This document shows positions 55,361 through 64,000 of a DNA stretch of 64,000 nt, one piece after another (position 1 is the stretch's first letter; each line of letters opens with the position of its first letter). Origin of the DNA: an uncultured Gemmatimonadaceae bacterium (GTDB taxonomy: Bacteria; Gemmatimonadota; Gemmatimonadetes; Gemmatimonadales; Gemmatimonadaceae); NCBI GenBank assembly GCA_963829055.1, contig CAWHHI010000020.1, forward strand, positions 160,001-224,000. Reading direction: 5' to 3'. A model generated the notes under the pieces. It saw only the letters and a list, made by a program, of their open reading frames with translations, was not told the DNA's origin and searched no databases. Position numbers and translations under genes: made by a program.

Positions 55361-55525
55361 ATTGGTCGCCTCGTAGCGGGCTCCTGGGAGCGCCGATGAT
55401 GCGAGACCAACCGCGTGGCCGCAATGGAACGAAGTGCGAGAAGTAGGGCACTCGCGTTAGAATGGAGGCATCCTGGCGTCTTCAAGGCCGCCGCGCACAC
55501 CAGTACGCCCGCCACTCAATCGCTC

Positions 55526-56769
55526 ATGCCCACCGCCCCGCTCGGTATCGGCTTCATCGGCAGCGGCTTCAACACGCGCTTTCACATCCAGGCGCTTCCA
55601 GGCCGTTCGCGACGCCGAGGTGCGCGGCGTCTGGAGCCCGAACAGGAAGAACGCCGCTTCGGCGGCCGAGCTCGCGCGCACGCTCGACGTCGGCGACGCG
55701 AAGGCGTACGCGAGCATCACCGACATGGTCGCGGACCCGGCCATCGACGCGATCTGGCTCTGCGGACCGAATCACGCCCGCATTGAGAACGTGTCGGAGA
55801 TCGTACACGCAATCGAGTCGGGGCGCGGTGACGCTCAAAGGCATCGCCTGCGAGAAGCCGCTCGCCCGCAACGTGGCCGAGGCGAAGCGGGTGAACGAGC
55901 TCGTTAGGCGCGTCAAGCTGCCGACCGGCTATCTCGAGAACCAGCTGTTCTCTCCGCAGGTGGAGCTCGGGAAGTCCCTGCTCTGGGCCCGTGGCGCGTC
56001 GAACACGGGACGCCCCTACCTCGCCCGTGCAGCCGAGGAGCACAGCGGTCCGCACATGCCGTGGTTCTGGCGCGGCGAGCTGCAGGGTGGCGGCGTGCTG
56101 AACGACATGATGTGCCACTCGGCCCTCGTCGTCAGGCACCTGCTCACGAAGCCGGGCGCGTCGTACGACACCGTGAAGCCGGTTCGCATCACCGGTCACA
56201 TCGCGAGCCTCAAGTGGTCGCGCCCGGAGTACGCGAAGCGGCTGTCGAAGACGATGGGCAAGGAAGTCGACTACACGAAGACGCCGTCCGAGGACTTCGC
56301 GAGCGTCATGATCGAGTTCGAGACGGACGACGGCTTCACCGTGCTCGGCGAAGCGTCCACATCGTGGAGCTTCGTCGGCGCGGGGCTTCGCCTGTCGGCC
56401 GAGTTGTTAGGCCCGGAGTACTCGATGTCGTGGAACACGCTCGACTCGGGGCTCAAGCTGTTCTTCAGCCGCGAGGTGAAGGGCCGTCAGGGTGAGGACC
56501 TCGTCGAGAAGCAGAACGCCGAGATGGGCTTGATGCCGGTGGTCGCGAGCGAGGCGGCCGCGTATGGCTACGAGGCGGAGGACCGCCACTTCGTGCGCGT
56601 CTTTCAGGGCAAGGAAGAGCCCAAGCTCACGTTCGACGATGGCGTCGAAGTCGTGAAGATCCTCATGACCGCGTATGCGAGCGCCGAGCAGGGGAAGACG
56701 CTCGCGTTTCCGCCGAAGGGGATCGACAAGTTCGTGCCCCAGGTCGCACGCGGAGCGTGGAAGCCGTGA
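55526..56769 (+). CDS. Gfo/Idh/MocA oxidoreductase, frameshifted
   Basis: IGFIGSGF, CEKPLARN, GGGVLNDMMCH. Confidence 0.85.
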
Positions 56770-58753
56770 CGGCACCTACGCGAGCGCGAGGCGGCATGGC
56801 CTCGGGGCAGAGCTCGACGCTCGTGCAGACGGTGGACATCGAGACGCCGGAGCTGGTGACGTTCAGCTACACCATCGCTGGCGTCGGCTCGCGCGTCGCC
56901 GCGGCGCTGATCGACTATCTCCTGTGCCTCCTGCTGTTCATCGCGATCATCGTCGGGATGGCGTTCATCGGCGCGAGCCGATTGGTGCGGTTAGGCGGAA
57001 CGTCGTCGGACGCGTGGGCGCTCGCGATCGTGGTGCTCGCGCAGTTCTTCATCCTGTGGGGCTACTACGTGCTGTGGGAGGGGCTGGCCGACGGCCAGAC
57101 TCCGGGCAAGCGCTACATGCGCCTCCGCGTCGTGAGCGACGGTGGCTACTCGGTGTCGTTCGCCGGCTCGGCCATCCGCAATCTCGTCAGGATCGTGGAC
57201 ATGCAACCGGTGTTCACGTATGGCGCCGGGATCGTGAGCATTCTCGCGACGAAGCAGGGCAAGCGACTGGGTGATCTCGCCGCGGGAACGCTCGTGGTGC
57301 GTGAACAACTTGTTCATCGGGAATCGGGAATCGGGCGGGACGCGCGCCGAAGGCGGGCGGCGGGAATCGAGCAAAGACCGTGGTGCAGCATCGGCCGGCG
57401 ACGGTGCCGCGTCAGGCACGGCTCACCGACGACGAGTTCGCCGTCGTCGAGCGGTTCATGGAGCGACGGTCAGCCTTGGATCCGGTGCGACGCGTTGAGC
57501 TCGCGACTCGCCTCGTGGAGCGGTTCGCGAGCGCGTTCGTCGGCTATTCAACTACTGCTGGCAGCCCGCTCGATCAGCTGTTCGAGCTGTACGCGGACGA
57601 GCGTCAGGCGCGCGCGAGCGGCGCGGTCGTGGGACGCGAGACGGGCGCGGCGCGTGAGCGTCACGCCATCGTCGCGTCAGGCACACCGAGATGGTCGTCG
57701 TTCGCGGCGCGGCTCGATCGCGCGCAGCACGGCGGGCTCAAGTCGCTCGGCGAGGATGGCGTGCGGAACTTCGTGGCCGAGTATCGGGACCTCGCGGCGG
57801 ATCTCGCGCGATTGCAGACGGCGGCGCGCGGTCGCGAGCGCGATGAGGTGTTCTACCTGAGCCGCCTCATGGCCGGCGCGCACAACCTGTTGTATCGCGG
57901 TCGCGCGCTGACGCTGAACGATTTATGGCGGACGTTCGCGGTCGACGCGCCGCGCGAGGTGCGACGCTCGTGGCGTCCCATCGCGCTCGCCGGGCTGTTG
58001 ATGTTCGGGCCGGCGATCATCGCGTACACAGCGGTGGTGCGCGATCCACCGGTCGCGCGCGTGTTCATTCCCCCGGCGATGCTGGACCGCGCGGAGGATG
58101 GCGTGAGGCGAGCGCGGCAGGGCCAGGGATACATCGAGGATCCCGAGCTGTTCCGTCCGGTGATGGCGACGAGCATCATCGCGAACAACGTGCAGGTGAC
58201 GTTCGCGGCGTTCGCCATGGGAATCGCGTTAGGCATCGGGACGGTGATCGTGCTCGTGACGAATGGCGTCAGCATCGGCGGCGTGTTCGGGCTCTACGCG
58301 TCGAAGGGGATCGGAACGCTGCTGGTCAAGTTCGTGGCGCCACACGGCGTGCTGGAGCTGACCGCGATCTGCATCGGCGGCGGGGCCGGCTTGCTGCTGG
58401 CGGCGGCGATATTGATCCCGGGGAATCGTCCGCGGAGCGTGGCGCTGCGCGAGAACGGTCGGCGCGCGATCCGGCTGATCGCGGCGTCGACGGTGCTGCT
58501 GCTGATTGCGGGAACGCTGGAGGGTTTCGTGTCGCCGATCGAGACGTGGCCGCTCTCGTGGAAGCTCGCGGTCTCGGCCGCGACGGCGGTGTTCCTGGCG
58601 GCGTACTTGTCAGGCGGACGCAGAGCGGGTCGTTCCTGCGACTCCAGCGGAGACAATACCGGTCGGAGACGACTTGCTCGGCCTTCGGCCAGCTATCCCG
58701 GCGACGCGACGTCAGCAGAACTGCGTTCGACAACCCGTCTCAGACTCGCATAG
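56766..58753 (+). CDS. RDD domain + stage II sporulation protein M (DUF95) membrane protein, frameshifted
   Basis: AGVGSRVAAALID, GQTPGKR, KRLGDLAAGT; then NNVQVTF, PHGVLEL, EGFVSP. Confidence 0.82.
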
Positions 58754-62860: not shown

Positions 62861-63499
62861 GCGGCGCGCTCCTCCGCCTCGGAACACGCCGCGTCGCAAG
62901 ATCGTGCAGCGCCGCGTACGTCGGGGCGTCGCACGTGCCGACGCCGAACATCACGCGATCGTAGCGTCGGCCGAAGCGCCGGAAGTCGCCGCTGTGCCGG
63001 CGAAGCCGCGTCGCTGCAGCTCACGAGCATAGTCGCCACTCGTCTTCGACGGATGCAGCCGGATGCGTTCTGCCGCGGCGAGCCGCTCGGTCACGCCGCG
63101 ATACAGCAGATGCGCGGCCTCCGTATAGTTGCCGGCCGCCGCGAGCTCGATCGGCCTCCATCCAGGGATCGCCCGCGCCCTGTACCGTGCCCGCCCGCAC
63201 GCGACGACGTCGCTCCTCGGCCTCGTGCCCGAGCGACGAGGCGCGCGACGATCGCGAGCACGACGACGATCGCGAGCCCGAGCACGATCCACTTCGCGTT
63301 AGGGATCTCGGACACGGACGCGAAGATCCGGCGGATCAACGCGGCGATCCAGTCGAGGAGTCGATCGAGGAGCGTCGCGCGTGACCGACCGCTGGTAGGG
63401 ACGCTGCCTGATGATCGCCGCGACCGAATCCTGAATCGCCGCAGCCGGCCATGGTGCCGTGCGACCCTGCACCACGAGCCCGAGCAGCGTCGCGATCAA
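62857..63499 (-). CDS. DUF4129-type membrane protein, frameshifted
   Basis: GNYTEAAHLLY...PSKTSGDYAREL. Confidence 0.6.
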
Positions 63500-64000
63500 G
63501 CGGAGAGCCCCTCCGCCATCATCTCGATGTCGTAGCCCTCGTTTCGCACGCGCGCGTCGTAGTACAGCAGCATCTCGGTGATCGCGAACATCGGGTAGGC
63601 GAGAATCGACGCCGCGACGGTGAGGACCGTCGAGATCACGATGCTCCCCGTCACGGCCGCGACGATCGCCGACCGCGAAGTACAGCACGAAGAAGATGAG
63701 AAACGCGAGCAACGTCGTGCCGAGGATGTGCAGCTTCTGCCCGCGCGACAGGGCCGCCGAGCGACCGAGTGCGCTGAACGCGCCGCGCCCTTCGATGATG
63801 ACCCCCGCCGTCACGGCAAAGTAGCGCGTCATCACGTAGAGGAACCCGACGAAGAAGAACAGGAAGCCGACGATCATGAGCAGGTACTTGATGAGCAAGC
63901 GCGATCATCACGGCCGGGAGGCGCGCCAGCTGCGTCACGGACGGCTACCGCCGGCTCGATCGGGTGCCCGAGGTAGTCCTCGGACGAGAGGCGCACCATG
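63496..64000 (-). CDS. Membrane protein of the MoxR cluster (partial, frameshifted)
   Basis: EGRGAFSALGRSAALSRG, LLYYDARVRNEGYDIE. Confidence 0.65.

Follow-up and report, generated by a model that had tools for sequence, protein, structure and literature searches.

Why would the core motif of integron attC sites be scattered through ordinary, cassette-free genes? The question is raised by positions 55400-64000 of a 64,000-nucleotide stretch of DNA (hereafter the window) from an uncultured Gemmatimonadaceae bacterium. A sequence-only reading had listed ten copies of GTTAGG or its complement CCTAAC in this region, eight of them as CGTTAGG, and had proposed a genome-wide signal linked to the integron.

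Abundance in the region, the window and the genome

All ten listed sites carry one or the other hexamer, eight are indeed CGTTAGG, and the codon spellings described for them (GCG-TTA-GGC, GTT-AGG and CCT-AAC) were recovered. An eleventh site, absent from the list, lies at 63298. The claimed over-representation stands: the 8.6-kb region holds 11 hexamers against 0.59 (order-1) or 0.52 (order-2) expected and 9 heptamers against 0.29 under either order, and none of 500 Markov simulations fitted to this region exceeded 4 hexamers or 3 heptamers. Rfam gave no match within 55400-64000. The copies are the following:

55903..55908, plus strand: CGTTAGGC copy, sense in a GFO/IDH/MocA-like gene, GTT-AGG (Val-Arg); kept in 7/7 genus genomes
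56406..56411, plus strand: TGTTAGGC copy in the same GFO/IDH/MocA-like gene, TTG-TTA-GGC (Leu-Leu-Gly); kept in 7/7 genus genomes
56990..56995, plus strand: GGTTAGGC copy in an RDD-family gene, CGG-TTA-GGC; in 1/7 aligned genomes, relatives having CGCTCGGC or CGTTCGGC
58228..58233, plus strand: CGTTAGGC copy in a SpoIIM-like gene, GCG-TTA-GGC; in 1/7 aligned genomes, relatives having CGTTCGGG
59984..59989, minus strand: CGTTAGGT copy, GTT-AGG, in a 238-aa minus-strand open frame
60403..60408, plus strand: CGTTAGGA copy, antisense within a 193-aa gene, CCT-AAC (Pro-Asn)
60751..60756, minus strand: CGTTAGGT copy in a MoxR AAA_3 ATPase gene, TCG-TTA-GGT
61306..61311, minus strand: CGTTAGGC copy in the MoxR gene, GCG-TTA-GGC
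61719..61724, minus strand: CGTTAGGT copy in a 327-aa open frame, TCG-TTA-GGT
62612..62617, minus strand: CGTTAGGC copy, antisense within a 309-aa open frame, CCT-AAC
63298..63303, plus strand: CGTTAGGG copy, GCG-TTA-GGG

The whole window contains 73 hexamers and 60 heptamers, compared with 6.93 +/- 2.45 (largest 13) and 3.06 +/- 1.86 in 100 dinucleotide shuffles. The further coding copies reported from the rest of the window are all there, 53316 having to be read as 53315. Stop codons had also been placed inside the motif; with the crude gene calls on which this check rests, those at 5061, 25562, 40712, 42339 and 51420 are stops of called genes, and the one at 28410 has no called gene.

The same signal extends to the genome, which is 86% complete. 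The 8-mer CGTTAGGC, the word of what follows, occurs 5,004 times on both strands across 7.78 Mb, 19.4 times its order-3 Markov expectation of 257.5 (z 296), and is the highest-ranking 8-mer of the genome by this measure, as TTAGG is the highest-ranking 5-mer. Its core is GTTAGG (7,103 sites), flanked by C's in ~90% and ~80% of copies. The flanks carry no information beyond 8 bp, which rules out that the word is part of a longer repeat. Within coding sequences, 4,643 GTTAGG sites were counted, against 617 +/- 26 when synonymous codons are shuffled within genes and 438 +/- 13 when codon order is shuffled (10 replicates each); for the 8-mer, the 3,317 copies compare with 159 and 74 under the same two procedures (21-45x). 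The codon-preserving nulls that the earlier reading had proposed are thus exceeded, with observed/expected ratios of 7.5 to 45, far from 1. Taken together, the Markov, shuffle and codon-preserving nulls rule out chance, composition or codon usage as the origin of the word, and the genome-wide enrichment supports the suggestion of a DNA-level signal of the Chi, DUS or HIP kind.

Two word-poor relatives provide a baseline of 1.2 copies per Mb (0.8 Mb compared), against 643 here. Relative to this poor-genome level, the specificity is graded: CGTTAGGT is enriched 85x, CGTTATGC 30x and TGTTAGGC 22x, and the precursor words CGTTGGGC and CGTTTGGC are depleted to 0.4 times. CGTTATGC is a minor second word of this genome, with 583 copies for 81 expected. 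All 20 contigs carry the word, at 0.75-1.22 copies per kb, and its density in 50-kb windows varies more than a Poisson process would (sd 10 vs 6.4). A literature search found no published report of it.

Placement, conservation and spread among relatives

The claim that the motif occurs on both strands and in different frames holds genome-wide. The strands are nearly even (3,609:3,494 hexamers, 2,547:2,457 for CGTTAGGC), and the word has no replichore polarity by GC-skew class of 50-kb windows: the strand counts are 1,158:1,069 in GC-skew-positive and 1,684:1,698 in GC-skew-negative ones. Without a strand skew between these classes, a replichore-oriented signal was rejected. On contig C16, where the GC skew flips, the summed counts are 201:159 before the flip and 230:234 after it. 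By the gene calls, the non-genic 25% of bases holds 28% of sites, and the logo of the word is identical within genes and outside. All four open frames are occupied (1,847 xxG-TTA-GGx, 1,340 CCT-AAC, 802 xxC-CTA-ACx and 625 GTT-AGG), and the two closed frames are used solely at stops (300/772 TAA and 227/1,644 TAG). As a result of the first of these spellings, 1,847 of the 2,870 TTA codons (64%) lie within the word.

Copies are dispersed singly, and no clustering was seen at promoters or elsewhere, apart from the attC arrays, which are the only dense clusters. Three stretches of 31-48 kb are free of the word. They were rejected as prophages, as their contents are housekeeping genes; because these genes have divergent second copies elsewhere, the stretches are probably chimeric or foreign DNA.

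Within the genus, the retention of sites is about threefold that of phase-matched control words. The 8-mer is identical at 26/41 sites in G001, 45/109 in G004 and 19/31 in G005, compared with 20%, 14.5% and 20% of control 8-mers. The word is also being gained: in a 3.1-kb alignment of seven genomes, 5 of the 11 word columns are singletons derived from near-words (CGCTCGGC and CGTTCGGG, for example); no column has the word in six of the seven genomes. All seven genus genomes are word-rich (2,501-5,112 copies). In a hand tally of the family, in which word-rich means 400 or more copies, ~85 of 301 genomes qualify, in 25 of 68 genera, and a single genus can contain both word-bearing species and species without the word, as does g52, in which G062, G152, G183, G209, G233 and G287 are rich and G115, G253, G270 and G303 poor. 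No word-rich genome was found among 401 from another phylum, that of an Acidobacteriota MAG, and hyper-abundance of the word was likewise not seen in 80 loci of many phyla or in 5 genomes of 5 other lineages. In 400 kb of each of two poor genomes (G064 and G008), no alternative hyper-abundant word was detected.

Possible readers of the word

Several scenarios may explain this distribution. The one that we tentatively favor, though with somewhat less than even confidence, is that CGTTAGGC is a lineage-specific self word, kept through biased DNA uptake or recombination as are DUS and USS, the uptake tags of Neisseria and Haemophilus. The enrichment, the independence of the word from coding frame, strand and replichore, the conservation, the ongoing gains and the patchy spread in the family are observations; a reader acting in uptake or recombination is inferred. 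The writing of the word would take place at the DNA level, irrespective of what is encoded, and a sequence-biased process that works across the entire chromosome would maintain it. In that case, a component of DNA uptake or recombination would favor fragments that carry the word, and alleles gaining it would therefore be imported and fixed more often, as a form of molecular drive. The endpoint would be a word at every tolerant place: synonymous Leu-Gly, Pro-Asn, Val-Arg and Leu-Thr spellings, stops and spacers.

The genome encodes uptake-type machinery, namely ComEC, PilM and five type IV pilin genes. Every one of the 44 panel genomes, whether word-rich or word-poor, has pilin genes, and the profile of an orphan pilin is uninformative because only its N-terminal half matches outside the genus. 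The ComP_DUS family (PF16732) had no match in the genome, in a search whose control itself matched in no genome. Of the candidate readers tested, the two methylases described below do not follow the word, and the searches with ComP, RecC and the orphan pilin yielded no candidate that does. Transformation is not known in these bacteria, and a literature search found no paper that names both Gemmatimonad and an uptake sequence.

One alternative is that a methyltransferase marks GTTAGG/CCTAAC and that a methyl-dependent step of repair or transformation creates and preserves the word. A type IIG-like N6-adenine methylase of 1,066 aa is encoded in an operon with an SNF2 helicase and is full-length in 43/44 panel genomes; enzymes of this class usually read asymmetric words of 6-7 bp. 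There is also a precedent in HIP1, which in the available part of the source is recognised by two methylases and raises transformation in a way that depends on methylation (PMC13756078). Nevertheless, full-length identity to the Eco57I/IIG-like methylase is 50-56% whether a genome is rich or poor, also in the contrast inside genus g52, and the enzyme is present in 30/31 relatives regardless of word status. A Dam-like gene does not correlate with the word either: it was found in 13/31 relatives, six of them poor, and is not in the word-rich G014. Both genes are frame-broken in this assembly, Vsr, C5, PF01555 and PF02384 methylases were not found in the 86%-complete genome, and the word is non-palindromic (CGTTAGGC and GCCTAACG differ). 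A methylation-linked origin seems unlikely to us.

The word could otherwise be bound by an abundant protein, for example one that organises the chromosome, and be selected for this function at every site, an explanation that we hold equally doubtful. Conservation at silent positions and single, dispersed copies on both strands would fit any sequence-specific reader. Yet, to our knowledge, known nucleoid landmarks are far fewer than 5,000 exact 8-mer sites, the absence of clustering outside the attC arrays speaks against such a function, and a dispensable drive would fit the patchy way in which close genera have lost and gained the word better than an essential architecture would.

A Chi-like role, in which an AddAB helicase-nuclease would read the word, protecting the cell's own DNA and directing its recombination, is a little less probable again. 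In its favor, core genes conserve this over-represented 8-mer, fragments that enter the cell with a Chi site would be driven too, and the genome has an AddB/AddA-type operon (a PD-(D/E)XK protein, then the gene of a UvrD helicase and another PD-(D/E)XK piece). However, Chi sites are strongly skewed and only few-fold enriched, and no replication orientation bias was seen here, the C16 counts included. RecC was not found in the genome.

The integron and the known systems

An arbitrary receptor specificity fails to explain one property of the word: it is, in 8/8 letters, the attC R box of this genome, and it matches GTTRRRY, described in the part of the source available as the core and secondary-site motif of integrons (PMC10127599). 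The identity with the R box that the sequence-only reading had pointed out is borne out by the window, where attC hairpins pair GCCTAACG with CGTTAGGC. The relevant features are listed below, hairpins without strand:

48008..48985, minus strand: integron integrase gene, for context; TIGR02249 265.7 bits (cut-off 265), Phage_integrase and SAM-like N domain; 6.4 kb upstream of 55400-64000
3138..3199: attC-type hairpin with arms GCCTAACG / CGTTAGGC; -34.9 kcal/mol, z -14.1
13520..13657: attC-type hairpin closed with a word pair; z -4.7
23877..24007: attC-type hairpin closed with a word pair; z -5.95
32691..32800: attC-type hairpin closed with a word pair; z -4.2
45096..45196: attC-type hairpin closed with a word pair, weaker fold; z -1.9

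One possibility is that self word and integron core are the same on purpose, either because a DNA-uptake or recombination reader of these soil lineages is tuned to the attC core or because cassette ends mimic the self tag. Bacteria that read the word would then preferentially take in integron cassettes from environmental DNA, and a single 8-bp signal would link natural transformation to cassette traffic. If this were true, the thousands of chromosomal copies would be a by-product of the import preference, and they could provide secondary sites to the integrase as well as starting points for new cassette ends. We regard this coupling as rather improbable.

More improbable still is that the integron drives the word, its integrase treating the word in double-stranded form as a secondary site, with cassette traffic as the origin or the purpose of the copies. 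The proximity of the integrase gene and the 8/8 identity, which extends to cassette arrays in relatives and in another phylum, would agree with it, and IntI1 is described, in the part of the source available, as using GTTRRRY secondary sites and being able to invert the DNA between them (PMC10127599). Nevertheless, true attC hairpins are limited to a few arrays. Inverted -/+ pairs 40-160 bp apart number 84, compared with 78-93 in the three other orientation classes; since this is background, attC-type pairs explain <2% of the 7,103 sites, and the word as part of attC sites was rejected. Copies arise through point changes in conserved reading frames, with no indels, and a genome whose integrase is active should be harmed by numerous secondary sites within genes. 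Among family genomes, 12/22 word-rich and 15/22 word-poor ones have an integron integrase that scores above the TIGR02249 cut-off, so that its presence is not associated with richness and a dependence of the word on it was rejected. Four rich genomes that are 95-99% complete (G114, G061, G100 and G083) have no integrase or a broken piece only, and at E<=1e-30 nothing matched in G004 (92% complete, 2,861 copies). Maintenance of the word does not require the integron integrase. In integron-bearing relatives and in genomes of the other phylum, the word occurs in cassette arrays on one strand, and genome-wide enrichment is lacking. The comparison with integron-free relatives that the earlier reading had proposed refutes the integron link and leaves the motif standing. 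As a cause of the word, the integron is already largely refuted; a supply of secondary targets for IntI, or of material from which new cassette ends could form, which had also been suggested, may be a consequence of the word.

If the word is a self word, its significance would go beyond this genome. Only two bacterial families have an established self word of genome-wide extent whose reader is known, and HIP1 of cyanobacteria is now proposed as a third case. Such a word in Gemmatimonadaceae, a major soil family of which most members are uncultured, would indicate that soil bacteria exchange DNA in a sequence-selective way. The word would also be a simple marker to separate native from foreign or mis-binned DNA in assemblies. 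The identity with the cassette core and the presence and absence within genera make both the reader and the link between transformation and cassettes directly testable, through comparative genomics and uptake assays.

Among the known systems, the attC R box or secondary site shares the letters of the word, as in the hairpins of the window, but where an attC site has an inverted R''/R' pair that closes a hairpin of 50-140 nt, >98% of the copies are single, unpaired, in conserved genes and independent of intI. Chi is likewise an over-represented core-genome 8-mer, and an AddAB-type enzyme is encoded here, but the word lacks a replication-oriented skew and its enrichment is much higher. The cyanobacterial HIP1 (GCGATCGC) is also a hyper-abundant octamer that is placed within genes, conserved, and patchy in its phylogenetic distribution, and in the available part of the source it is now proposed as an uptake recognition sequence (PMC13756078). 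However, it is a palindrome with two cognate methylases that go with its presence (PMC13756078), whereas the word is asymmetric and neither of the two methylases tested here tracks it.

The DUS of Neisseriaceae and the USS of Pasteurellaceae, as far as the available part of the source describes them, are likewise short non-palindromic words found about once per 1-1.5 kb, evenly on both strands, in several frames within genes and also between genes, conserved among relatives, missing in unrelated bacteria and accompanied by genes for uptake machinery (10.1101/2025.10.24.684340). About half of their copies lie in terminators, according to the same source (10.1101/2025.10.24.684340), often as inverted pairs, whereas inverted pairs are at background here. 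Their sister lineages use dialects, of which none was seen in the two poor relatives, and these DNA uptake enhancing sequences (DUES) bias uptake during natural transformation through a minor-pilin receptor (ComP, with ComN predicted). No ComP-type receptor was found here with a PF16732 search whose control was silent. In addition, the present word differs from DUS and USS in belonging to another phylum, in its letters, in being 8 bp long without flanking signal and in coinciding with the integron attC core.

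Abundance and sequence context of the word

The hexamer GTTAGG, core of the 8-mer CGTTAGGC, was proposed, in a sequence-only reading, to be a genome-wide signal. The source assembly (G000; 7.78 Mb in 20 contigs, 66.7% GC, 86% complete), in which the window is C20:160001-224000, contains 7,103 copies of the hexamer (3,609 on the forward and 3,494 on the reverse strand) and 5,004 of the 8-mer, and all contigs carry the word at 0.75-1.22 per kb. The hexamer is expected 2,674 times under an i.i.d. model, 747 under an order-1 and 512 under an order-2 Markov model, and CGTTAGGC ranks first in over-representation among all 8-mers (19.4-fold over the 257.5 copies of an order-3 model, z = 296). 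The top 5-mer is TTAGG, preceded by G in 7,103 of 7,392 cases, and 35% of all TTA trinucleotides fall within the word. Codon-preserving nulls (10 replicates each) were applied to our own crude gene calls (open frames of at least 80 aa with a GC3 criterion; 6,191 genes, 75% of bases): coding sequences hold 4,643 hexamers, against 617 ± 26 after synonymous shuffling within each gene and 438 ± 13 after shuffling of codon order, and 3,317 8-mers against 159 and 74, comparisons that are conservative because the rare codons contributed by the word itself are retained. The genome-wide claim is thus upheld, Markov and codon-preserving nulls both being far exceeded. A weaker second word, CGTTATGC, occurs 583 times in G000 against 81 expected (7.2-fold), 30 times the level of word-poor relatives. 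The 8-mer CTGATAGC/GCTATCAG is 14.5-fold over-represented across 254 kb of the relative G004 (loci L103-L115) and shows no over-representation in G000 (187 copies, 182 for the reversed word).

All ten sites reported in positions 55400-64000 are present, eight of them as CGTTAGG and with the codon spellings described, and an eleventh copy, absent from that list, lies at 63298. These 11 hexamers compare with simulated means of 0.59 and 0.52 under order-1 and order-2 Markov models trained on the region itself (500 runs, highest count 4); the whole window has 73 hexamers and 60 heptamers, against 6.9 ± 2.5 and 3.1 ± 1.9 in dinucleotide shuffles. The region is ordinary chromosome, with genes for a GFO/IDH/MocA-like oxidoreductase, RDD and SpoIIM-like membrane proteins, DUF58 and a MoxR ATPase. 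Its synteny extends to 6/6 other genomes of the genus at 73-82% nucleotide identity, and the best match of the MoxR gene outside its own genome is in a Gemmatimonadaceae MAG. Other features of the window are:

3138-45196: attC hairpins, on the 3' side of the integrase gene
48008-48985: integron integrase, barely above the family cut-off (265.7 vs 265 bits)
49827-58228, + strand: eleven consecutive copies of the word, adjoining the 5' side of intI
56757-58753: RDD/SpoIIM genes, split between overlapping frames
59063-59858: DUF58 gene, likewise split
60415-60540: intergenic near-perfect hairpin repeat, ~125 nt (DNA fold -52.3 kcal/mol, z -8.3)

By a rough estimate, chance alone would yield a few same-strand runs like that at 49827-58228 among 7,103 sites. 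Of its copies, three lie within one PD40 propeller gene and are therefore not cassette boundaries. The hairpin repeat is a REP- or MITE-like element, with dozens of copies in G000 and more in genus relatives.

The logo of the word is C(0.90) GTTAGG C(0.79), with flanks devoid of information, and is identical within and outside called genes; bases outside called genes, 25% of the total, account for 28% of the sites. Within genes the word is read in each of the four open frames (xxG-TTA-GGx 1,847; antisense CCT-AAC 1,340; xxC-CTA-ACx 802; GTT-AGG 625), and the frames giving TAA or TAG are found solely at gene ends, the word containing 300 of 772 TAA and 227 of 1,644 TAG stops. It also contains 1,847 of 2,870 TTA codons (64%), 19% of CTA, 13% of CCT and 7% of AGG. 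Orientation is independent of replication, no strand bias being seen between replichores inferred from a weak GC skew (1,158:1,069 in GC-skew-positive and 1,684:1,698 in GC-skew-negative 50-kb windows). Copies are scattered singly, and densities of at least 5 per kb with alternating orientation occur only in the attC arrays on C20.

Besides the crude gene calls, frame breaks in the G000 assembly call for caution. Both DNA methylase genes (C8:73870-76291 and C8:134573-135785) are frame-split like those in the window, which suggests assembly indel errors or pseudogenes. At contig ends, three segments 31-48 kb long (C6:6854-55038, C11:7377-44055, C6:591809-623330; GC 0.66-0.73) lack the word and carry housekeeping genes (aro/trp genes, FtsK, GlnA, IlvD, FolD). 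Several of these genes have a second copy elsewhere, with 47-59% amino-acid identity between the two. Chimeric joins, contamination or large pieces of foreign DNA probably account for the three segments.

Conservation, gain and distribution

Within 356 kb of pairwise alignments, the 8-mer sites of G000 are identical in 26/41 cases in genome G001, 45/109 in G004 and 19/31 in G005, against 20%, 14.5% and 20% for 8-mers used as codon-phase-matched controls. A 3.1-kb alignment of the seven genomes of the genus has 11 word columns, of which two are kept in 7/7, none in 6/7 and five are singletons. In the latter, near-words (CGCTCGGC, CGTTCGGG, CGTCAGGC) were replaced, often by two changes, without indels or frame changes. 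Relative to 0.8 Mb from two word-poor relatives, which hold a single copy, the word is ~500-fold enriched (643 vs 1.2 per Mb); with similarly small baseline counts, the variants CGTTAGGT, CGTTATGC, TGTTAGGC and CGTTAGGG are 22- to 85-fold above the word-poor level and the direct precursors CGTTGGGC and CGTTTGGC stand at 0.4-fold of it.

All seven genomes of the genus have 2,501-5,112 copies. In the family (301 genomes of at least 80% completeness, 68 genera; hand counts), ~85 genomes have at least 400 copies and ~62 at least 1,000, in 25 genera, and the remainder have 2-100, against 40-700 for a reversed control word. The genus g52 is mixed, with seven members at 3,244-4,141 copies and four at 4-66. 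Five genomes from other phyla have 15-47 copies, so the word-poor state is the ordinary baseline and not avoidance. Enrichment was found in none of 401 genomes of an Acidobacteriota MAG's phylum (maximum 299, control 314) and in none of 80 loci spanning many phyla. In two word-poor members of the family, no other word is hyper-abundant. These presence/absence data are drawn from MAGs, and the tallies include unpublished, word-poor genomes (G013; G048, G094, G241, G256, G278; G343, G368, G469), on which none of the conclusions depends. The data show a DNA-level pressure that overrides codon preference on both strands and in spacers. Under it existing copies are retained and further ones arise from near-words; some lineages are subject to it and close relatives of theirs are not.

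Candidate readers

A methylation-linked system of the type of HIP1, the cyanobacterial octamer, is an unlikely source of this pressure. G000 encodes a Dam-like and an Eco57I/IIG-like methylase, both frame-broken. The former is present in 13/31 relatives, uncorrelated with the word; the latter is full-length at 50-56% identity in 43/44 panel genomes, rich or poor, and neither tracks the word. In G004 the IIG-like adenine methylase (1,066 aa) forms an operon with a DrmD/DpdE-like SNF2 helicase (L136, G004:C28, 4899-10450; C8:~73.9-76.3 kb in G000), and its full-length retention in nearly every searched family genome is unusual for a restriction-like module. No match to Vsr, C5 methylase, PF01555, PF02384 or RecC was found in G000 (86% complete), nor to ComP_DUS, whose control likewise matched no genome. 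That a DNA-binding protein whose sites are individually selected is responsible also seems improbable. None of the candidate readers examined tracks the word. An AddAB-type operon is present, and a Chi read by AddAB can be considered, yet the orientation skew is missing and this reading is rather doubtful. ComEC, PilM and five pilin genes are also present; an orphan pilin has matches outside the genus that are limited to its N-terminal half.

Integrons and known uptake words

Integrons are on record in Gemmatimonadota (PMC8618304). The attC hairpins of the window are closed by GCCTAACG paired with CGTTAGGC; the word is therefore the R box of G000, as had been proposed, and it matches the published core and secondary-site motif GTTRRRY (PMC10127599). 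Three tests speak against the further suggestion of a causal link. There are 84 inverted -/+ pairs at a spacing of 40-160 bp, and 93, 78 and 78 pairs in the other orientations. The integrase family TIGR02249 scores above cut-off in 12/22 word-rich and 15/22 word-poor genomes, with likewise no association among 31 relatives; word-rich genomes without it include G114 (30 contigs, 95% complete), G100 (99%), G061 (97%) and G083 (5 contigs), the last having no more than a stop-containing fragment that scores 188 bits. Finally, in relatives (G021:C95) and in some genomes of the phylum of the Acidobacteriota MAG (G488, 168:6), the word recurs periodically on a single strand in arrays, with no genome-wide enrichment. 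An integrase-driven origin is accordingly very improbable. The 60-170 copies, nearly all on one strand, in G488, G693, G384, G619 and G661, all from that phylum, suggest large cassette arrays with the same core. In G001 an intI-like gene (C250:7382-8050) lies immediately next to the ortholog of the window from ~59065 on; the 10 kb that separate the two in G000 are therefore placed differently there. The identity of word and attC core in 8/8 letters is too exact to dismiss and is explained neither by the favored reading nor by its rivals. The boldest reading, a reader tuned to cassette ends, is a long shot.

No published report of the word was found in the literature searched, which excluded subscription journals. 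Competence is regarded as widespread among soil bacteria (PMC7305173). We tentatively favor uptake or recombination biased toward own DNA, which may well lie behind the word: own DNA carrying it would be favored in either process, and the word would thereby spread and persist. HIP1 has itself been proposed as an uptake sequence (2026, PMC13756078). Established uptake words, the DUS of Neisseriaceae and the USS of Pasteurellaceae, jointly termed DUES, are described from these two families (2025 preprint, 10.1101/2025.10.24.684340), and the pattern seen here, within and between lineages, is the signature of molecular drive described for them.
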